This document shows, piece after piece, positions 16,604 through 63,423 of a stretch of 64,000 bases of DNA. The notes under the pieces are model-generated. The model had not been told where the DNA came from, did not search any database, and saw only the letters and a program-made list of their open reading frames with translations. Source of the DNA: an uncultured Chryseobacterium sp. (lineage in GTDB: Bacteria; Bacteroidota; Bacteroidia; UBA10329); contig CAYWET010000009.1 of the NCBI GenBank assembly GCA_964457245.1, positions 25,284 to 89,283 of the forward strand, written 5' to 3'. Position numbers and translations under genes: made by a program. The number at the start of each line of letters is the position of its first letter. Position 1 is the stretch's first letter.

Positions 16604-17629
16604 ATGAACCAGAATCTGGATCCAACTTCTGAAGGACAACTTCCAATAGACAGAGAAACCGAACGTGCACTACGCCCTGTCGGTTTTGATGAATTCAGTG
16701 GGCAAGACAAAGTGGTGGAAAACCTGAAGGTGTTTGTTCAGGCTGCGCAACAGCGGGATGAGGCGTTGGACCATGTTCTGCTTCACGGTCCTCCTGGATT
16801 GGGCAAAACCACCTTGGCGAACATTATTGCCAACGACCTAGGCGTGAGCCTTAAACTCACATCAGGTCCTGTTTTGGATAAGCCAGGAGACCTTGCTGGT
16901 TTGCTTACCAACCTTGAACCGAACGATGTTCTTTTCATCGATGAGATACATCGGCTTTCCCCTGTGGTTGAAGAGTATCTCTACTCGGCAATGGAAGATT
17001 ATCGGATTGATATAATGATCGAGACGGGGCCGAATGCGAGGTCGGTTCAGATCAATCTCAATCCGTTCACATTGGTTGGGGCCACAACCCGTTCAGGTTT
17101 GCTGACCGCGCCACTTCGTGCGCGTTTTGGAATTACTTCTCGCTTGCAGTATTACGATGCAAAGGTCCTATCTGGAATTGTGAAACGTTCTGCAAGTATT
17201 CTTGAAGTTCCGATTGAAGAAAGTGCTGCTGTTGAAATTGCCCGAAGAAGCCGTGGTACGCCACGTATCACCAATGCTTTGCTCAGAAGGGTTAGAGATT
17301 TTGCGCAGATAAAAGGCGATGGGACAATCAACAAGGAGATTACTCAATTTGCGTTGGATGCTTTGAACGTTGACAAACATGGACTGGACGAAATGGACAA
17401 CCGAATCCTTCGAACTATAATCGAGAAATTCAAGGGAGGGCCAGTCGGTTTGACAACCGTTGCAACAGCAGTTGGTGAAGAAGCGGGAACCATTGAGGAA
17501 GTTTACGAGCCATTCCTCATTATGGAAGGATACATCTCAAGAACACCTCGAGGACGGCAAGCCACGGAACGAGCCTACGAGCATTTGGGAAAAATCAGTC
17601 CGGGCCGAGAAGGTACACTCTTCGAATAG
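16604..17629 (+). CDS. ruvB: Holliday junction branch migration ATPase RuvB
   Basis: 341 aa; AAA+ Walker [12 protein letters not shown], Walker [10 protein letters not shown], sensor motifs. Confidence 0.95.
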
Positions 17630-17636
17630 GGGTTTC

Positions 17637-17657
17637 GCGCGAAGACGCAAAGACGCC
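17637..17657. repeat. left arm of inverted repeat bounding the GxxExxY cassette (partner 18113-18133)
   Basis: gcgcgaagacgcaaagacgcc vs downstream ggcgtctttgcgtctttgcg-type complement (17/18 core match aagacgcaaagacgc). Confidence 0.6.
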
Positions 17658-17675
17658 AAGAGTTAAGTTTATGAA

Positions 17676-18053
17676 ATGAATGAGAACGATATAGCAAAGA
17701 TTGTGGTCGACACCTCACTTATGGTTCATCGTGAATCGGGTCCTGGACTTTTGGAAAGTGTTTACGAAGAAATCTTGGCTTACGAACTTGAAAACCGTGG
17801 TTTAACCGTTGAGCGGCAACGCGGCATTGAGGTTGAATGGGATGGACGAAATCTTGGAAAAGCATTTGTGGCAGACCTCGTCATTAACTCGTTGGTAATT
17901 ATCGAATTGAAGTCGGTGAAGAAGTTAGAGCCAGTTCATTTCAAACAACTATTGACCTATTTGAGATTAGCCGATATGAAGTTGGGTTTGCTGATCAACT
18001 TCAACGAAACACTCATCAAGGATGGAATCAAACGCGTTGTAAATGGTCTTTGA
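17676..18053 (+). CDS. GxxExxY family protein (23S rRNA intervening-sequence-type protein)
   Basis: 125 aa; G-L-L-E-S-V-Y-E-E motif (GxxExxY) near N-terminus, size and composition typical of the family; flanked by inverted repeats (see repeat feature). Confidence 0.8.
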   Translation: MNENDIAKIVVDTSLMVHRESGPGLLESVYEEILAYELENRGLTVERQRGIEVEWDGRNLGKAFVADLVINSLVIIELKSVKKLEPVHFKQLLTYLRLADMKLGLLINFNETLIKDGIKRVVNGL

Positions 18054-18112
18054 ATCTCTTTTCAAGTCTCTGTGCCCTAGCCAGATTTTCTTCAAAGCAT
18101 CCGTCAATTCCT

Positions 18113-18133
18113 TTGCGTCTTTGCGTCTTTGCG
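18113..18133. repeat. right arm of inverted repeat bounding the GxxExxY cassette
   Basis: ttgcgtctttgcgtctttgcg is the reverse complement of the upstream arm; contains direct tctttgcg x2. Confidence 0.6.
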
Positions 18134-19052
18134 AGAAATGAAAAACGAAGCCCTCATAAAACAAGAAGCCAAGCGATTGGGGTTTCTACAATGCGGTATC
18201 TCCAAAGCTGATTTTCTTGCGGAGGAAGCCCCGCGCCTCGAACGTTGGCTCAACGCCAATATGCATGGCGAAATGGGCTATATGGCCAACCATTTTGATA
18301 AACGATTGGACCCACGGAAGTTGGTTAATGGTGCCAAATCGGTTATCACGGTTCTGCTGAATTACTACCCTTCAGAAACGCAAAAAGACCCAGAAGCCCC
18401 AAAGATTTCCAAGTATGCTTACGGCAACGATTACCATCATGTGATCAAAGGAAAGCTGCGTGAGCTGGTCAATTACATCAACGAGGAAATCGGTGAAGTA
18501 GGAGGCAGGGCGTTTGTAGATAGCGCGCCTGTTATGGACAAAGCTTGGGCAGCCAAAGCAGGTCTGGGTTGGATAGGAAAGAACACCAATCTCATCAACT
18601 CAAAAACGGGTTCGTTCTTCTTTATTGGAGAATTGATTCTCGATATTGAATTGGAACCCGATGGCCCAACTACTGACCATTGCGGCACCTGCACGGCTTG
18701 CATTGATGCTTGTCCCACAGAAGCGATTGTTGAACCGTACGTGGTAGACGGTTCTAAGTGTATTTCCTATTTCACCATTGAGTTGAAAGATGCCATTCCA
18801 ACCAATATGAAAGGCAAATTCGACAACTGGGCTTTTGGTTGCGATGTGTGTCAGGATGTTTGCCCGTGGAATCGTTTCTCAAAACCACATTCGGAACCGC
18901 AGTTCAATCCGCATCCAGAAATGCTGGAAATGACCAAACATGATTGGGAAGAACTGACTGAAGACGTCTTCAAAAAAGTGTTTCAGAAATCGGCTGTAAA
19001 ACGCACTAAGTACAGCGGGCTGAAGCGAAATATTGCTTTTTTCAATCGGTAA
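18129..19052 (+). CDS. queG: epoxyqueuosine reductase
   Basis: 307 aa; two 4Fe-4S ferredoxin motifs ([24 protein letters not shown]), HEAT-like C-terminus; real start may be ATG at 18138. Confidence 0.9.
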
Positions 19053-23888: not shown

Positions 23889-25607
23889 TTAAAAACTCGT
23901 TGAAATGCTAAGTGCAACTCCGTTGGAAGAAGGAACATTTCTACACACACCTCCAACGCAGAAAATACCCGCTCGTTGTCTTCCGTATTGTAACGTAACA
24001 CGGGTTGCGTCTTTAATATAACCGACCTGAACCGTAGGGTAGAAGAGACGCTTTTCTGGTTCTGGATTGGAGTAATTATACTGGCCTATAAAAGAGACGA
24101 ATACATGAGGAGACCACGTGTATTCCAGCAGAACTGCGGCCCAATCATGCTGATCTTGCTTGGTGAAGAGCCCTTGAAGTTCCCACCTTATCGCATGTTT
24201 TGCAGATATTTTGTGCGTCATTTCTGCAATGATGATGTTCGATTTGACTGGTTCCTCGCCAGGGTGCCCTTGGATCACATCAATATCGAAGAACATGTTC
24301 AAGTACTTGATGGTGAACTTGTGGTTCTTGTTGATTTTCTTGTTGATTTCGATGTTGAAGTCTTGGAAGTAGAGTTTTCCTAGTCCAAAGTAGTTTGAGG
24401 TATATCCCGTACCATTTTCGTTAATGGTTGTGTCCAGATTGTGAACACGCGAGTAATTAACGGAAATGTTCATGCCGTATTTACCACCGAGCAATGATTT
24501 CCTCGGAATAGTGTAGCTACCATCAAACTGAAAAGCCCATTCCCCGTTTGGTTGCGTGGCATATGGGTAAAGTCCAGCAGCAAGTAGATAAGTGTGTTGC
24601 TTGGTCAATGCTGGAAGAAAATTGATGTTCAGGTCAAACAGGGTTGCATCTCGCTGCGAGCGGAAATTCATGTTATCCGTGCGTTTAACGCTGGCTACCA
24701 GACCGAAGCCTTTTTTTGTGTACGAAGCAGTTACCAGCACCGCATCCCCATAATTGTAATTGGGGCGTTGGTCGCCACCTTGGAGTGTAATGATATTCGA
24801 AGCTTGAGGGTCTTGACCCTTTCTCACGTATTCTCCACTGATGTTAAAACCTCCATGAAGTAGATTGAAACGCGCGGCCCAAGCTCCAACGTTTTCGGGA
24901 AGCTCAAGATCAGTGTCGTTATCTTCTTCGTACTTACTTACGAACGACCCTCCCAGAGTTAATCGTGTTTTCTTCTCGGCAAGTGCTTTGAATGTTTCGT
25001 TCAGTGAGATCTCACCATCAAATGCTCTGATAAGCGCTTCGCCATGACTGAAGTAAAACCGTTGCTTTCCTACCAATGCTTTCAGGTAAATTCCGCCAAG
25101 AATATGAGATTTGATGCGAGCACCTTCAATCAAGTTATCGAAGCCAAGCCCGCGTTCTTCATACGCTCTCAGAATCATTCCTGAGCCGAACTGCTCGTAA
25201 AAACCACCAACGGTTATGTGCAGAAAGTCGAGGTCGTAGCTGGCAAATCGGTATGGAACACCTTGACCATCATATCGCTGGTCAAAACCTTGCAATACAT
25301 TGTAATAGCCTTCGTATCGTAATCCTGCGGTGAATTTGCCTTTCGTGTAGATGATATTGGCATAGCCATTCATCAAGAACTTTTCAGGAACGGGCGGGGC
25401 ATCAATGGCAGAATCAGGATTGTAGATCTGTGCATCGAATTGGAAGCTACCGTGCACCTCGCCCCATTTGCCTTTAATATTGGTGCTGTTCTGTTCCTGA
25501 CCGAATGATGAATTCACCCATCCGAAAACGAACAGAACAAGAAAGAACGATCTAAGCGTAGAATGCATCCAGAAAGATGGGTGGAACTTATTTTTTAGAG
25601 GCTTCAA
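23889..25607 (-). CDS. outer-membrane beta-barrel protein (uncharacterised), probable start at Met 25568
   Basis: 572 aa; signal peptide after MHSTLRSFFLVLFVFGWVNSSFGQ, C-terminal ...ISTSF aromatic terminus typical of OM barrels. Confidence 0.6.
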   Translation of the reverse strand: MKPLKNKFHPSFWMHSTLRSFFLVLFVFGWVNSSFGQEQNSTNIKGKWGEVHGSFQFDAQIYNPDSAIDAPPVPEKFLMNGYANIIYTKGKFTAGLRYEGYYNVLQGFDQRYDGQGVPYRFASYDLDFLHITVGGFYEQFGSGMILRAYEERGLGFDNLIEGARIKSHILGGIYLKALVGKQRFYFSHGEALIRAFDGEISLNETFKALAEKKTRLTLGGSFVSKYEEDNDTDLELPENVGAWAARFNLLHGGFNISGEYVRKGQDPQASNIITLQGGDQRPNYNYGDAVLVTASYTKKGFGLVASVKRTDNMNFRSQRDATLFDLNINFLPALTKQHTYLLAAGLYPYATQPNGEWAFQFDGSYTIPRKSLLGGKYGMNISVNYSRVHNLDTTINENGTGYTSNYFGLGKLYFQDFNIEINKKINKNHKFTIKYLNMFFDIDVIQGHPGEEPVKSNIIIAEMTHKISAKHAIRWELQGLFTKQDQHDWAAVLLEYTWSPHVFVSFIGQYNYSNPEPEKRLFYPTVQVGYIKDATRVTLQYGRQRAGIFCVGGVCRNVPSSNGVALSISTSF

Positions 25608-57518: not shown

Positions 57519-58244
57519 ATGGGATTGCAGAATAAACATCATTTAGCCACAGATGCACAGATTTGCACAGATGGTTTCACAGAGAATAGAATGAATATTC
57601 GCATTTCTACGTTTCTCCTAACTCCTAGCTTCTGGTTCCTTTTCTCGTTTTTCCTTTTTTCCTCTTTCATCTCGTCAGCTCAGCCAAGAGAGAATGAGAA
57701 GGTGAAATTCCTAGCGAAGATTGAGACGCGCAATTCATTTGTGCAGACGCACCATGCAACGTTTCTTGGTGTTCGAGCGGGTTTTGAATTCAAGTTTCCT
57801 ATTAGATGCGGTATCGGTTACTATTGGATGCTCACAAACTTTAATTCCAACTTCTATAAGCCATCTGATCATGGTCAGGCCGACCCAACAGCACAGCCCA
57901 AACTTCGATATGCAATTGGCTACATAGATTACAGTTTCTACGAAGAAGACGATTGGACGCTTTCTGTTCCTGTTCAGATAGGGGTAGGAGAGACGTTTTA
58001 TCGTACCGAAGAGGCCAATAAATTTGCTAATGGTCTTGTGGTGCCCATGGAGGCTGGAATTGCCGTAGAGTACCTGTTTACGCGTTGGGTTGGCTTTGGT
58101 GTTGGTCTCGGTTACCGTGTAATGCTCAAAGGCAATAAACAGGTAAAAGAGAACTTCAATTCACCGTATTACCAGATTCGATTGAATATTCTGTTTACCG
58201 AGATATTTAGAGGACTTAAGAAAAAGAAGAAAGATCAATCGTAA
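57519..58244 (+). CDS. hypothetical secreted protein, probable start at Met 57591
   Basis: 241 aa as listed; hydrophobic signal after [31 protein letters not shown]; possible small OM barrel. Confidence 0.5.
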
Positions 58245-60922
58245 TTCAGATTCGGGCTTAACCAACGTTCAACGTCCTTAACTTCCATTCCTTTCCGTTT
58301 CGCATAATTCTCCACTTGGTCTTTTTCAATTTTGCCGAGACCGAAATACTTGCTTTCTGGATGCCCGAAGTACCAACCGCTCACAGATGCTGCTGGCATC
58401 ATGGCCAAACTGTCGGTAAGGCTCATTCCTGTAATTGAAGAAGCATTAAGCAACTTGAATAATTCAGGTTTTTCGGTATGGTCTGGACAGGCTGGATAAC
58501 CAGGCGCAGGACGAATACCACGATACTTTTCACGTATCAACTCCTCGTTGGAAAGAGCCTCTGAAGGCTCGTAACCCCACGTTTCCTTTCTCATAATCTC
58601 ATGAAGCTTTTCTGCAAACGCTTCAGCCAAACGATCGGCCAATGCTTTAAGCATGATGGATTGGTAATCATCATGGTCGGCTTCAAACTCCGCCAATTTC
58701 GTTTCAATACCAAGACCAGTAGTTACTGCAAATCCACCCATGTAATCCTTCAAACCGGTTTCCTTTGGAGCGACAAAATCAGCCAAAGCTATGTTTGGAA
58801 CACCATCAGCTTTTTTGGTCTGTTGTCTAAGCGAATGGACTACTGAAAGAGTCTCAGATCTACTTTCATCTGAGTAAAGTTCAACATCATCACCAATTGC
58901 ATTAGCAGGCCAAATACCAACCACGCCACTTGCTTGTAGCCACTTTTCAGAAACGATTTTCTGAAGCATGGATTGAGCGTCATTGAACAGTTTGGTAGCT
59001 TCTGTTCCTACAACCTCATCTTCCAGAATTTTCGGATAACGGCCAGCTAATTCCCATGTTTGGAAGAAAGGAGTCCAGTCGATGTAGTCAACCAGTTCGG
59101 ATAGTGGAAAATCTTTGAATTCAGTCAGCCCAAGTTTATTCGGTTTAGCGATGTCTTCCACTTTCCAATCAATTTGGAATTTGTTAGCTCTTGCTTCATC
59201 CAACGAAACGAACTGCTTTACACCCCGCTTCTTGGCGTGCATTTCACGCAGCTTTTCATACTCCTCTTGGATGCCATCCACAAAGGTTTCCTTCTTCTGT
59301 CCAAGAAGACTTTCAACTACCGTAACCGATCGCGAAGCATCGAGAACATGCACTGTTTGACCTTTCGTGTACCGCTGATCAATCTTCACAGCTGTGTGAA
59401 CTCTAGAAGTTGTTGCTCCTCCTATCAATAGCGGAATCTCAAACCCATCGTGCTCCATTTCCTTTGCCAAATGAACCATCTCATCAAGCGATGGTGTGAT
59501 CAGTCCACTCAAGCCAATGACATCCACCTTTTGTGCTTTGGCTTCCGCGAGGATTTTCTCCGCAGGAACCATCACACCAAGGTCAATGATCTCGTAATTG
59601 TTGCAGGCCAATACCACGCCTACAATGTTCTTTCCGATGTCGTGAACATCGCCTTTTACGGTGGCAAGCAATACTTTACCCGCTTTGCTTGAAGCACCAT
59701 CAGCTTCTTCTTCCATATACGGAAGAAGGTATGCCACGGCCTTTTTCATAACGCGCGCACTCTTAACCACCTGTGGCAGGAACATTTTTCCTTCTCCAAA
59801 CAGGTCTCCCACTACGTTCATGCCGTCCATCAACGGACCTTCAATCACATGCAACGGACGCTCCGCTTTCAGACGCGCTTCTTCTACGTCTTCTTCTACA
59901 TAATCTGCAATTCCTTTTACCAAGGCATGCGAAAGGCGCTCTTCAACAGGTGCTTCGCGCCAAGTGAGGTCCTCTTTCTTCTCCTTGGCCTTGCCAACCA
60001 CGGTTTCCGCAAATGACAAAAGCCTTTCGGTAGCATCTTCTCGCCTGTTCAATAGAACATCTTCAACATGTTCGAGAAGGTCCTTCGGAATCTCATCATA
60101 AACCTCCAACATGGTGGGGTTCACGATTCCCATGTCCATTCCATTTTTGATTCCGTGATATAGGAATGCCGAATGCATCGCTTCGCGTACAGGATTGTTT
60201 CCTCGGAACGAGAATGAGACGTTACTCACACCACCGCTGACCTTGGCTCCAGGCAGATTCTCCTTGATCCATTTGGTGGCATTGAAAAAGTCGAGCGCGT
60301 TATTGTTGTGCTCTTCCATTCCCGTTGCCACAGGAAAGATATTCGGGTCGAAAATGATGTCTTGAGGCGGGAATCCAACCTTATTGACCAAGACATCATA
60401 AGAGCGTTTACAGATTTCAATTCTTCGGTCGTAGCTATCTGCTTGGCCTTGCTCGTCAAACGCCATGACAACGGTTGCGGCACCATAACGCTTTATCTTT
60501 TTCGCATGGTCAATGAACTCGGCTTCGCCTTCTTTCAGGCTGATTGAATTGACCACACATTTTCCTTGGACACATTGCAAACCCGCTTCAATGATTTCCC
60601 ATTTGGAGCTATCAATCATGATTGGAATTCGGGCAATGTCTGGCTCAGCCGCCAATAGATTGAGGTATTTGACCATGGCTTCTTTACCATCGATCATACC
60701 CTCATCCATGTTTATATCAAGCACCTGCGCACCACCTTCTACTTGGTCGCGCGCCACCGATAATGCTTCATCAAACTGCTCTTCTTTGATCAGTCGAAGG
60801 AACTTCCGCGAACCCGTTACGTTGGTTCGTTCTCCAACATTTATAAAGTTGGAGCCTTCGTAAATGAGTAATGGCTCAAGGCCTGAGAGTTGTAAAGGGG
60901 GTATGGATAAGATTTCAGACAT
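58235..60922 (-). CDS. metH: methionine synthase, pterin-binding + cobalamin-binding + AdoMet-activation modules (C-terminal 3/4 of MetH)
   Basis: 895 aa; starts with pterin-binding module, B12-binding DxHxxG-type region ([11 protein letters not shown]), activation domain. Confidence 0.9.
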
Positions 60923-60943
60923 GAGATTTCAGATGTCAGAATT
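60923..60943. repeat. inverted-repeat arm flanking four-helix-bundle cassette (partner 61308-61328)
   Basis: tgagatttcagatgtcagaat vs reverse complement of cttctgatttctgaaatctcg = cgagatttcagaaatcagaag (19/21). Confidence 0.55.
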
Positions 60944-61298
60944 AGTTGTTTTTCAATGTTCTGCGGAATCCGAAAATCATCTTTTCGAGTTCAGACAAAC
61001 GTGTTAATAATGGATTGACCTTGTCTTTATGGGTGTAATTCAGTTCAACTGCAATCAATAGCTGAGTCCTTACTTCAAACGAAGAACCCGAAGCGATGCT
61101 CAGAAACTGCGCAAACTCCTTGTCAGAGTATCTGCCTGCACCTTCGGCAATGTTGCTGGCAATGGAAACCGCTGCCCTTCTGATTTGAGCTGTCAATCCG
61201 AATTTTTCATCAGAAGGGAAATCATTGGTCAGAACGTAAATCTCTTTCGCAACTTCCATTGCCAATTGCCAAACCTTAAGCTGTTCCAAATTGTGCAT
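60942..61298 (-). CDS. four-helix-bundle protein (23S rRNA intervening-sequence-type family)
   Basis: 118 aa; MHNLEQLKVWQLAMEVAKEIY...IASNIAEG...FEVRTQLLIA typical of the family; ATG immediately follows TAA of upstream metH fragment. Confidence 0.8.
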   Translation of the reverse strand: MHNLEQLKVWQLAMEVAKEIYVLTNDFPSDEKFGLTAQIRRAAVSIASNIAEGAGRYSDKEFAQFLSIASGSSFEVRTQLLIAVELNYTHKDKVNPLLTRLSELEKMIFGFRRTLKNN

Positions 61299-62342
61299 TT
61301 ACAGAGCTTCTGATTTCTGAAATCTCGTGTCTGATATCTGCCTAGGCGCATAGCGCGAGGCAACTTCCGCAATTGCCTTGATGTGCGGTGGAGTTGTGCC
61401 ACAACAACCACCGATGATATTGATGAGATTCTCCTTCAAGAAATCCTCAATCTGCGCGGCCATCATTTCGGGGGTTTCGTCATATTCTCCGAATTCGTTT
61501 GGCAAACCAGCATTCGGATGGGCGCTTACGTTGTATTGAGATTTTCCTGCCAAAACTTGAAGGTGTGGCCGCAGCTGCGAAGCTCCCAACGCACAATTAA
61601 AGCCGACACTCAGTAATGGAATGTGAGAAACCGAGATTAAAAACGCTTCAGCGGTCTGGCCTGAGAGCGTTCTTCCGCTGGCATCGGTAATAGTGCCTGA
61701 AACCATGATCGGTAATCGATACCCGATTTCTTCGTACAATTCTTCAATAGCAAACAAGGCAGCTTTCGCGTTGAGCGTGTCAAATACGGTTTCAACCAAA
61801 AGAATGTCTGCCCCACCATCAACCAATGCCTTTGCTTGCTCCTTGTAAGCAATCCTCAGATCATCGAAAGTCACAGCACGAAAACCAGGGTCGTTTACAT
61901 CTGGAGAAAGCGATGCAGTTCTGTTTGTCGGACCCATTGAACCCGCTACAAAACGTGGTTTGTGTGGTTCTTTGGCGGTCATTTCATCGGCAACTTCGCG
62001 CGCAATCTTGGCCGATTCATAATTGATGTCGTAAACCGCATCTTCCAAACCGTAATCTGCTTGTGCAATGGTCGTTCCGCTGAACGTATTTGTTTCGGCA
62101 ATGTCCGCGCCTGCTTCGTAATACTGACGATGGATGTCTTTGATAATCTCAGGGCGCGTGATGGAGAGCAGATCGTTGTTTCCTTTCAACGGTTTTTCTG
62201 CATCCATGAATCGTTCGCCACGATAATCTTCCTCTTCCAACTTATGGCGCTGGATCATGGTTCCCATGGCGCCATCCAGAATGAGAATGCGTTCTTTGAT
62301 AGCCGCTTCGAGTAGTTCTGTTCTATTGCTCATTTGTCGCAA
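61299..62342 (-). CDS. metH: methionine synthase homocysteine-binding module (N-terminal 1/4 of MetH as separate ORF)
   Basis: 347 aa; Hcy S-methyltransferase domain ([21 protein letters not shown] zinc-binding). Confidence 0.9.
61308..61328. repeat. inverted-repeat arm flanking four-helix-bundle cassette (inside 3' end of metH Hcy-module ORF)
   Basis: see partner at 60923-60943. Confidence 0.55.
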
Positions 62343-62404: not shown

Positions 62405-62520
62405 TCAACTTATCTTTTCCCGATTACTATCGGAATAGGATTTGGCACCTTTCCCGATAGCTATCGGGAGGTTGCCAAGACTTCGTAGGGCCTTTTCCCT
62501 CCGTCTTTCTTGATAAGCAA
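62405..62520 (-). promoter_or_regulatory. SAM-I (S-box) riboswitch in metH leader
   Basis: Minus-strand RNA reads cttATCAAGAaaGacGGAGGGAaaaGGCCCtacGAAgtcttGGCAACC...GGTGCCAAATCC...AAGATAAG, matching conserved S-box core elements. Confidence 0.7.
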
Positions 62521-62571
62521 TAAGTTTAAGAACGTGATGCGAAGGTAATTACTAACCTTCAGAGTTCAAAC

Positions 62572-63423
62572 TTAGAAGTCGTACTCGCTGTAATCTTCGG
62601 TAAACTCTTCTGGTTTGAAAGTCGGGTTGATCTTGAGTTTAGAGTACTCATACGTTGCCATCAAACCTTTCTCATCAAATAGTTTCTGATAGAGTGGCAG
62701 GTACGTTTCCTGATCGATGTACATCTCAATTTGCTTGCAAAGCGAGTTCTGAACCTTGATGGTCTGACCAGCTTTCACATCGTCAAAATCTTTAATGCCA
62801 TTTAGTTCGAGAAGCGAATATTCATCCAAGCGAAGTTTGCGCGCAATTTTCAGAATATCCTCGCCAGCCTGAACGGTGTAGCTCTCAATCTTGTATTCCT
62901 TATTGGTCAGCGTCACGTTCCAGCATTTTCGGCCATCGTAAGTCACTTCGCCATTGATGGTCACGTAATCGTTGATCTTGTCCTTGTACTTCAGATAAAC
63001 GTGGTTGAGCAGATCGCCTGTGTAACCGAAACCAAGCTCCTTAACGCTATGATGCTGGTCCTTTCGGAGGATGTCTCCATCAGGATCCAAGTTCAACGTC
63101 ATGAATGGAAACGCGTTCGGGTTAACCTTGGCATTGCCTTTGTTTTCGCCTTCGCGATAAAGCACTTCTGCGCCTTTGTTCGGAACCTGAACCTTCAGAT
63201 AAACTTGGAAAGGCTTGACGTTCAGCTTCACATCTTGCGATCCAGGGGCCATTTTTCCCTTGATGCGTTCGGTTTTGTCTAGATGAAAACTCAGAGTTTT
63301 GATGCCATCAATAGTTGACATCATCTTGCGGAAGATCTCGTGCTTGTCGAGGTCTTGAGCGTTGATCGGTTGAACGAGGACAAGTGCTGAGAATAGGAAT
63401 AAAACGGTTCTTTTCATTTTCAA
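62572..63423 (-). CDS. secreted LysM-domain protein
   Basis: 283 aa; signal peptide; LysM (YTVQAGEDILKIARKLRLDEYSLLELNGIKDFDDVKAGQTIKV). Confidence 0.75.
   Translation of the reverse strand: MKMKRTVLFLFSALVLVQPINAQDLDKHEIFRKMMSTIDGIKTLSFHLDKTERIKGKMAPGSQDVKLNVKPFQVYLKVQVPNKGAEVLYREGENKGNAKVNPNAFPFMTLNLDPDGDILRKDQHHSVKELGFGYTGDLLNHVYLKYKDKINDYVTINGEVTYDGRKCWNVTLTNKEYKIESYTVQAGEDILKIARKLRLDEYSLLELNGIKDFDDVKAGQTIKVQNSLCKQIEMYIDQETYLPLYQKLFDEKGLMATYEYSKLKINPTFKPEEFTEDYSEYDF

Follow-up and report, generated by a model that had tools for sequence, protein, structure and literature searches.

In a 64,000-nucleotide (nt) stretch of contig CAYWET010000009.1 of an uncultured Chryseobacterium sp. (positions 25,284 to 89,283; this whole stretch is called the window, and coordinates without a locus name are positions within it), the two parts of a split metH gene are separated by a 430-nt cassette on the minus strand (60,910–61,339), made up of a 5′ heptamer arm, an open reading frame (ORF) for a four-helix-bundle protein and a 3′ heptamer arm. 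In size, terminal stem, heptamers, ORF family and ORF orientation, the cassette matches the intervening sequences (IVSs) found in 23S rRNA. We conclude that this promoterless S23p/Avd-like gene between mirrored heptamer arrays is probably an IVS-type cassette that secondarily colonised a pre-existing metH junction in an ancestor of the clade and has been inherited since. It is one instance of a widespread class that targets conserved core-operon junctions and appears to be undescribed, as the literature searched contained no description of IVS-type cassettes in protein-coding operons.

The homocysteine-binding (Hcy) domain of MetH (fragment 1) is encoded by ORF 1 (61,299–62,342, minus strand, probable ATG at 62,333; 347 amino acids (aa), PF02574 (S-methyl_trans), 1.7e-100), which covers positions 4–341 of the full-length MetH model NF007024. 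ORF 3 (58,235–60,922, minus strand; 895 aa) encodes the folate-binding, B12 cap, B12-binding and activation domains (fragment 2), matches four Pfam domains (Pterin_bind, B12-binding_2, B12-binding and Met_synt_B12) and covers positions 344–1232 of NF007024 with 1578 bits. Separate and adjacent, the two ORFs jointly span the full-length model, as in a split MetH. ORF 2 (60,942–61,298, minus strand; 118 aa), which lies between them, belongs to the 23S rRNA IVS protein (S23p, Avd-like) family. This assignment is fixed by the agreement of the Pfam, NCBIfam and PDB matches: PF05635 (23S_rRNA_IVP) at 3e-41 and 140.4 bits against a cutoff of 33.8, over residues 5–109; TIGR02436 (“four helix bundle protein”) at 5e-39 and 132.9 bits against a cutoff of 24; and, as the nearest solved relative, the pentameric XCC0516 (PDB 2GSC, 1.7e-23). 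Homology to 2GSC and 2RLD suggests a four-helix-bundle fold for the ORF 2 product. Neither tblastn nor hidden Markov model (HMM) searches found a second four-helix-bundle gene in the 64-kb window. The TAA of ORF 1 (61,301–61,299) directly abuts the ATG of ORF 2 (61,298–61,296), giving TAAATG, and 19 nt separate the TAA of ORF 2 from the ATG of ORF 3 (60,922–60,920). Both features had been described correctly in an initial annotation of this DNA, whose further remark that ORF 2 is in frame with the preceding TAA is true, yet follows trivially from the abutting codons and adds nothing.

The arms form an inverted repeat of 32 nt (60,910–60,941 and 61,308–61,339) with 28 complementary positions. 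The 5′ arm (61,308–61,339, minus strand; AGATATCAGACACGAGATTTCAGAAATCAGAA in mRNA sense) is a TCAGAnn-type array that reads as the units CAGATAT, CAGACAC, GAGATTT, CAGAAAT and CAGAAGC, and the 3′ arm (60,910–60,941, minus strand; TTCTGACATCTGAAATCTCATGTCTGAAATCT) is its mirror, an nnTCTGA array. The 7-nt period is evident from a lag-7 self-identity of 0.47 in the 5′ arm and 0.58 in the 3′ arm, compared to ~0.2 at other lags. The initial annotation had already bracketed ORF 2 with inverted repeats; these are real, but its 21-mers lie at 60,922–60,942 and 61,307–61,327, 1 nt from the positions it gave, and pair at 17 of 21 positions rather than the 19 it reported. It had also placed the upstream arm inside the last codons of the metH fragment, and the 5′ arm does encode the final 13 residues of ORF 1, while the beginning of ORF 3, its ATG and four opening codons, falls within the 3′ arm. 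Judged by the reading frames, the arms now encode both the C-terminal tail of fragment 1 and the start of fragment 2.

The local inverted-repeat score was 20, compared to a maximum of 11 (mean 5.7, sd 1.0) in 2,890 random in-window pairs spaced as in the real repeat. A scan of the whole window for arms up to 1.5 kb apart ranked the cassette repeat first and that of a GxxExxY cassette, described below, second; the remaining repeats were at most 86% complementary over at most 30 nt. Both the minimum-free-energy and the centroid RNA folds of the 430-nt unit were closed by the long stem (−137.8 kcal/mol, z = −3.56), and an Rfam scan of the cassette at a permissive threshold matched no family. The proposed search for further copies of the gagatttcaga arm was unproductive: within the window it found only the two arms and one adjacent heptamer, not above chance.

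We compared the junction with those of the 80 closest Hcy-domain loci (71–90% identical), obtained by scanning a single genome from each species. Almost all of them carry a Bacteroidota label; they comprise metagenome-assembled genomes (MAGs) and isolates of Flavobacteriales, Cytophagales, Chitinophagales, Sphingobacteriales and Saprospirales. In all 80 relatives the Hcy ORF ends within a few codons of a conserved PR motif in the same linker, and the rest of MetH begins as a separate ORF wherever the contig continues. The distance from PR to the downstream IPPLQ motif is 17–74 nt, mostly 26–60 nt, in ~70% of the relatives, and at these empty junctions the stop and start codons are adjacent or overlapping. 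Since every relative is split at the shared linker and ~70% carry no insert, the split is old and independent of the insert. The comparison across Bacteroidota that the initial annotation called for thus separated loci split without an insert from loci split with one; of the two possibilities it had left side by side, that the insert exploits an existing split stands, and that it caused the split does not. By sequence comparison, the insert took the place of the native 26–60-nt linker.

We consider it very unlikely that the split itself arose from the cassette or a forerunner, which would have inserted into the linker and supplied a stop and a start codon, with most lineages losing the ORF later. 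Such an origin would fit the fact that the arms provide today’s tail and start codons, that the fragments meet to within two positions on the full-length model, and that cassettes have been drawn repeatedly to the site and left remnants there. However, all 80 relatives, which represent several orders, are split, and the ~70% of junctions without an insert are compact and native-looking, with no heptamer traces. Moreover, the MSE/MSD start of fragment 2 is common to empty and filled sites, and unrelated cassette lineages as well as ordinary genes (QueF-like, ABM-like) occupy the site, which argues for a permissive gap that existed before any of them.

Among the relatives, four-helix-bundle genes flanked by significant inverted repeats (score reached by at most 1 of 200 shuffles) were found at the metH junction of loci L001, L008, L012, L016, L021, L022, L040, L056, L059 and L065. 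Stages of decay are represented by a frameshifted copy (L052), a 53-aa remnant with arms (L029) and arms without an ORF (L037). GxxExxY/PD-(D/E)XK genes with arms of their own occupy the junction in L053, L064 and L066, ORF-less hairpins in L003, L004, L048 and L007, and ordinary genes in L006 and L080 (QueF-like), L049 (ABM-like) and L041 (membrane protein). The arms were significant in 16 of the relatives’ loci, corresponding to 15 cassettes and the ORF-less hairpin of L048, and all 15 cassette ORFs are co-oriented with metH. Every stop-to-stop ORF in the 627 kb of sequence around the 80 loci was searched with a profile of 93 four-helix-bundle proteins and, by phmmer, with two GxxExxY proteins. 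At the junction this recovered four-helix-bundle genes or remnants in 12 cases and GxxExxY genes in 3; 1 further hit lay elsewhere. The sole hit off the junction is a four-helix-bundle gene (34% identical) just past the end of metH in an Ekhidna genome (L040, 8105–8482), for which no arms were detectable. At least three unrelated four-helix-bundle lineages, one PD-(D/E)XK lineage and ordinary genes share the site, and even allowing for relatedness the metH junction is still a strong hotspot.

Presence is sporadic, as it is for IVSs: four different junction states occur among hosts at 87–95% identity. Besides the window-type cassette, these are a non-orthologous four-helix-bundle cassette (34% identical) with GTCGATA/GTCCACG arms in L001 (90% Hcy identity), a compact empty junction, TAATTAATG, in L002 (89%), and ORF-less hairpins in L003 and L004 (87–90%). 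Among Ekhidna genomes the junction is filled in 4, holds a remnant in 1 and is empty in 3. The differing states in such close hosts indicate loss and replacement at one site, besides inheritance.

Some junctions showed further particulars. The hairpin arms in L003 (5014–5100) and L004 (3277–3365), GCAAAGACGCAGAG..., are similar to those of the GxxExxY cassette in the window; these hairpins may be solo-arm remnants or independent hairpin elements. The QueF-like ORFs (145 aa, judged by eye; L006 4974–5411 and L080 5180–5620) belong to two Flavobacteriales MAGs and have no inverted repeats, and their position between the metH halves implies that the junction accepts ordinary genes too. In locus L041 (NZ_CP142525.1, from a record labelled Psychrobacter sp. 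HD31), the split metH is Bacteroidota-like (Hcy 74% identical) and its halves enclose a 341-aa membrane-protein ORF; the combination of a gammaproteobacterial label with such a metH could reflect mislabelling or horizontal transfer. In a Crocinitomicaceae MAG (L019, 4975–5190), the junction contains ~22-nt tandem repeats, GCCGTCGGTTCTCGAATGAAGC..., and no cassette. At the cassette boundaries, arm units coincide with host codons. The 3′-arm heptamer GTCTGAA is identical in sequence to the native start of fragment 2, ATGTCTGAA (M-S-E; 60,914–60,922), which is also present at empty sites; the same ATGTCTGAA at the right boundary in the window matches clade-B arms. At the left boundary, the Y-S-P-R codons AGTCCACGG in L001 (2449–2460), L021 and L037 equal a heptamer unit of their own cassette type (clade A). 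The arrays may have grown out of host sequence or into it.

The cassette of the window has been at this site for a long time. All seven of the seven homologs checked at 69–92% identity (P0002, P0007, P0011, P0013, P0014, P0016 and P0022) are encoded at the metH junction, in a conserved order of Lactamase_B, Exo_endo_phos, DUF1571/LysM, Hcy, four-helix bundle and MetH-C genes; the neighbours of the split metH in the window are COX1, a 241-aa ORF, DUF1571/LysM and Exo_endo_phos. Across the hosts of the window-type cassette, Hcy identity to the window is 80–95%, and in every ortholog the arms are TCAGAnn arrays. Pairwise ratios of nonsynonymous to synonymous divergence (dN/dS) among the four-helix-bundle orthologs were 0.04–0.18 with saturated synonymous sites (dS), which indicates that the protein has long been kept by selection. 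As judged from these sequences, the window cassette is vertically inherited within its clade.

Strong purifying selection and long vertical residence at one site would also be expected of a host gene, for example an assembly or B12-handling factor dedicated to the split MetH, with the repeats as its regulatory element; the site-specificity of the lineages and the co-regulation of the gene by a S-adenosylmethionine (SAM) riboswitch, described below, point the same way. We nevertheless regard such an accessory role as quite unlikely. The site is empty in ~70% of relatives, some relatives carry a non-orthologous four-helix-bundle or PD-(D/E)XK gene instead, and homologs with such arms reside in chemically unrelated operons (rpoBC, sucCD, nrdBA and fadBA) and in the rRNA of other phyla.

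The generality of the arrangement was assessed with the 80 best metagenomic relatives of the four-helix-bundle protein (42–59% identical), of which 75 loci were evaluable. Significant flanking inverted repeats (score reached by none of 100 shuffles) were found at 43 of the 75. Nearly all of these arms are heptamer-periodic, with units that vary by lineage (AGTATCA, AGTCTGC, CTAGCTN, AGTGACA, CGTGACT and others), and the spacers barely exceed the arm length. In 34 of 40 informative cassettes the arms were more complementary than arrays with shuffled unit order, which gives moderate support for a mirrored order and indicates that the arms are mirrored copies rather than merely carriers of a shared motif. 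Gene direction agrees with that of the upstream neighbour in 61 of 70 cases, and in 53 of 65 with that of the neighbour downstream. Rfam found no rRNA in the 80 loci and none in the window. As a side observation that illustrates the divergence of heptamers between lineages, the 5′ arm of L118 (1391–1414) and its 3′ partner are telomere-like (AGGGTTTAGGGTGAGGGGATAGGG and CCCTATCCCCTCACCCTAACCCCT).

Being simple repeats that can pair in several registers, the arms might have been a low-complexity artefact or a product of chance, with ORF 2 an ordinary hypothetical gene. The probability of this explanation is negligible, because the control pairs in the window, the recurrence of the architecture with unrelated heptamers at the homologous loci and the unit-shuffle comparison each refute it.

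Host junctions were assigned by clustering, by Pfam and, where so indicated, by inspection. They are fadB-like|thiolase (11 loci), sucC|sucD (at least 7 loci), gmd|fcl (3–6 loci, by inspection), thiolase|acyl-CoA dehydrogenase (2–3 loci, by inspection), nrdB|nrdA (2 loci), the metH junction again (2 loci, L091 and L097), rpoB|rpoC (1 locus) and E2|lpd (1 locus). Protein clusters follow the insertion site: two clades were recognised at metH, one at fadBA and one at sucCD, each with its own heptamer type. Genes for 23S_rRNA_IVP proteins have also been reported between cas genes, for example cmr3|cmr2, and interpreted as Cas-associated (PMC3936711); they fit the pattern of operon-junction cassettes. 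A cassette of the same design with an unrelated ORF is present in the window itself (17,633–18,138, plus strand), where a 125-aa PDDEXK_3/GxxExxY ORF (17,676–18,053) lies between arms of 28 nt. The initial annotation had drawn a parallel to this cassette, which is borne out both here and by the GxxExxY genes at the relatives’ metH junctions. These arms consist of ~8-nt units (GCAAAGAC) and are complementary at 25 of 28 positions; the cassette sits between ruvB (16,604–17,629) and queG (18,129–19,052), and its 3′ arm overlaps the start of queG.

The metH operon of the window is preceded by a SAM-I riboswitch leader (62,407–62,519, minus strand; RF00162, 90.1 bits, E = 3.7e-20), and such a leader is also present in the relative L097 (172–290). 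Its position directly upstream of the operon places the cassette gene under SAM control. A motif scan of the stretch from the riboswitch to ORF 3 found no σ70-like promoter, TAnnTTTG motif or minus-strand terminator; the nearest minus-strand TAnnTTTG lies just upstream of the riboswitch (62,567–62,574). The cassette would be transcribed solely by read-through from the riboswitch-controlled metH promoter, and translation of ORF 2 may proceed by termination-reinitiation at TAAATG. Bacteroidota are generally taken to initiate translation at start regions free of structure and not by means of a Shine-Dalgarno sequence. Within the mRNA, pairing of the arms is predicted to give a ~32-bp stem that would sequester the start codon of fragment 2: in the predicted ensemble the probability that the AUG region is unpaired was ~0 with the stem and 0.5–0.8 with the 5′ arm blocked. 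A ribosome completing fragment 1 would have to melt the 5′ arm and would thereby free this start codon, so that the two MetH halves would stay translationally coupled across the 430-nt insert. Given the adjacent stop and start codons of empty junctions and initiation at unstructured starts, the stem would restore the coupling of the halves. As in rRNA IVSs, RNase III could plausibly also act on this stem, whose length is compatible with cleavage. Between lineages, the cassettes most likely spread by homologous recombination in the highly conserved genes on either side; this would account for the existence of site-specific lineages and for the preference for core-enzyme operon junctions.

Several observations weigh against this account. 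No target-site duplication or other insertion footprint was found when filled and empty junctions were compared. The hotspot counts include related genomes, and clustering of the proteins suggests ~8–9 independent lineages. About 40% of the homologous loci have no significant arms. Orthologs of the window cassette keep the 3′ arm with its ATG, while the number of 5′ units and the variable dinucleotides drift, and the ortholog L173 has only a weak stem; long perfect pairing is therefore not strictly maintained. No clean covariation was found among the orthologs (8 distinct sequences with a drifting 5′ arm). An RNase III cut in the 5′ arm would strip fragment 1 of its stop codon; processing may therefore be limited, or translation may outcompete it. 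Finally, sense-strand arm mismatches were A·C in 55 and G·U in 23 cases across 61 cassettes (p = 4e-4), or 25 versus 11 in a per-cassette tally, an excess that opposes a stem in the sense RNA because such a stem should tolerate G·U. This bias may be confounded by relatedness and by selection for downstream-gene leaders rich in A and C, but the arms may also have a strand-specific role as DNA or an antisense role. Enrichment of G·U as a signature of a sense-RNA stem was rejected, A·C having exceeded G·U, and is not used as support here. In the same set of 61 arm pairs (the window and L001–L177), the mismatched bases of the 3′ arm are mostly A or C.

The mismatch spectrum, which favours G·T wobble on the antisense and not the sense strand, bears on a different explanation, in which the arms act as DNA, either as recombination or transposition ends or as a strand-specific single-stranded hairpin of the attC or IS200/IS605 kind, and RNA pairing is incidental. 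Terminal inverted repeats, patchy presence among close relatives, ORF-less hairpins with arm-like sequence at the metH junction and the PD-(D/E)XK nuclease-fold ORF of sister cassettes are likewise in line with it. We judge this explanation unlikely, although less so than the other alternatives. Neither a transposase or integrase nor a target-site duplication was found, the 64 kb hold just this one copy of the arms and of the ORF, and the heptamer units drift among orthologs that clearly stayed put. In addition, co-orientation with host genes (15 of 15 at the relatives’ metH, ~85% elsewhere) indicates dependence on the host transcript. We retain the IVS-type cassette at a pre-existing junction as the probable reading. 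A broader proposal, which we hold tentatively and as a possibility well short of an even chance, is that rRNA IVSs and operon-junction cassettes form one site-specific selfish class. Its ORF, Avd-like or PD-(D/E)XK, might recognise its own inverted heptamer arrays, as a strand-specific hairpin or as a motif array, and promote processing or mobility; lineages might specialise on conserved junctions (23S rRNA, metH, rpoBC, sucCD, nrdBA and fadBA), where they would persist and from which they would spread by flank recombination, the arms restoring translational coupling.

Elements of the IVS type have so far been viewed as an oddity of rRNA genes, and for more than 30 years the question of what their ORF does has stood open. 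The window cassette presents the IVS architecture in a protein-coding operon, with an ORF under clear purifying selection, and the site-specific lineages, together with filled, replaced, decayed and empty states among close relatives, make the element class tractable. A cultured carrier exists in Ekhidna lutea DSM 19307 (L016), so expression, processing and effects on the operon are directly measurable, and the coupling model offers a testable account of how insertions between translationally coupled cistrons are tolerated. In Bacteroidota, the cassette class accounts for a large proportion of the genes annotated as “four helix bundle protein” or “GxxExxY protein” that break up core operons. 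It also carries a warning that such cassette genes should not be taken as functional partners of the genes beside them, as happened for the cas loci (PMC3936711).

Among known systems, split MetH has been described before, for example in Sphingomonas koreensis (PMC7857596), where the homocysteine-binding domain is likewise encoded apart from the rest; unlike the window, the published cases in the literature searched mention no inserted gene between the halves. The protein Avd of diversity-generating retroelements is a homologous small four-helix bundle (weak NF033474 and PF22296 matches), yet the NF033474 score of ORF 2 is 24.8 against a cutoff of 80, and no reverse transcriptase, template repeat or variable repeat lies nearby. 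GxxExxY/PDDEXK_3 (TIGR04256) cassettes share the design of a small ORF between inverted short-period arms, co-oriented within an operon, and differ in fold, theirs being a PD-(D/E)XK nuclease, and in arm units, theirs being ~8 nt and of the GCAAAGAC or CACAGAG type. Like MITEs (miniature inverted-repeat transposable elements), repetitive extragenic palindromes and bacterial interspersed mosaic elements (REP/BIME) and integron cassettes, the window cassette is short, bounded by inverted repeats, intergenic and variably present. In contrast to MITEs and REP/BIME, it shows no target-site duplication in comparisons of filled and empty sites, no high-copy identical ends within the 64 kb and no transposase or RAYT nearby. 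It shares with integron cassettes a promoterless ORF that relies on outside transcription, but it has arms at both ends rather than a single-end attC, no integrase nearby and a location within the metH operon. The arms also set it apart from all of these, each cassette lineage having heptamer arrays of its own. Heptamer simple-sequence repeats (short tandemly repeated repetitive sequences, STRR; TAACTGA repeats) are known from cyanobacteria, Beggiatoaceae and Bacteroidetes (PMC4679880) and resemble the arms as tandem intergenic heptamers near start codons in partly shared phyla; in contrast, the published description is of direct repeats, for which a part in regulating translation has been suggested, and not of mirrored arrays around a four-helix-bundle gene.

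The closest counterparts are the 23S rRNA IVSs with an S23p ORF in Leptospira and Coxiella burnetii, a parallel that the initial annotation had rightly drawn. The IVS of C. burnetii is 428 nt long, has a 28-bp terminal stem and carries three to four GACAGAT heptamers, strain-variable in number, just before the S23p ATG (PMC4990558). The window cassette is likewise ~430 nt long and closed by a long stem from terminal inverted repeats (~28–32 bp across these elements), with CAGA-core heptamers beside the ORF (GACAGAT in Coxiella, TCAGAnn in the window), a PF05635 ORF in the orientation of the host transcript, no promoter of its own and a patchy distribution. Unlike the rRNA elements, which are located in helix 25 or 45 of 23S rRNA, it lies in an intercistronic junction of a protein-coding operon, its arms overlap coding sequence and a start codon, and its excision by RNase III is predicted to damage the upstream cistron. 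Whereas the Coxiella ORF is decaying and apparently untranslated (PMC4990558), the ORF of the window cassette is under strong purifying selection.

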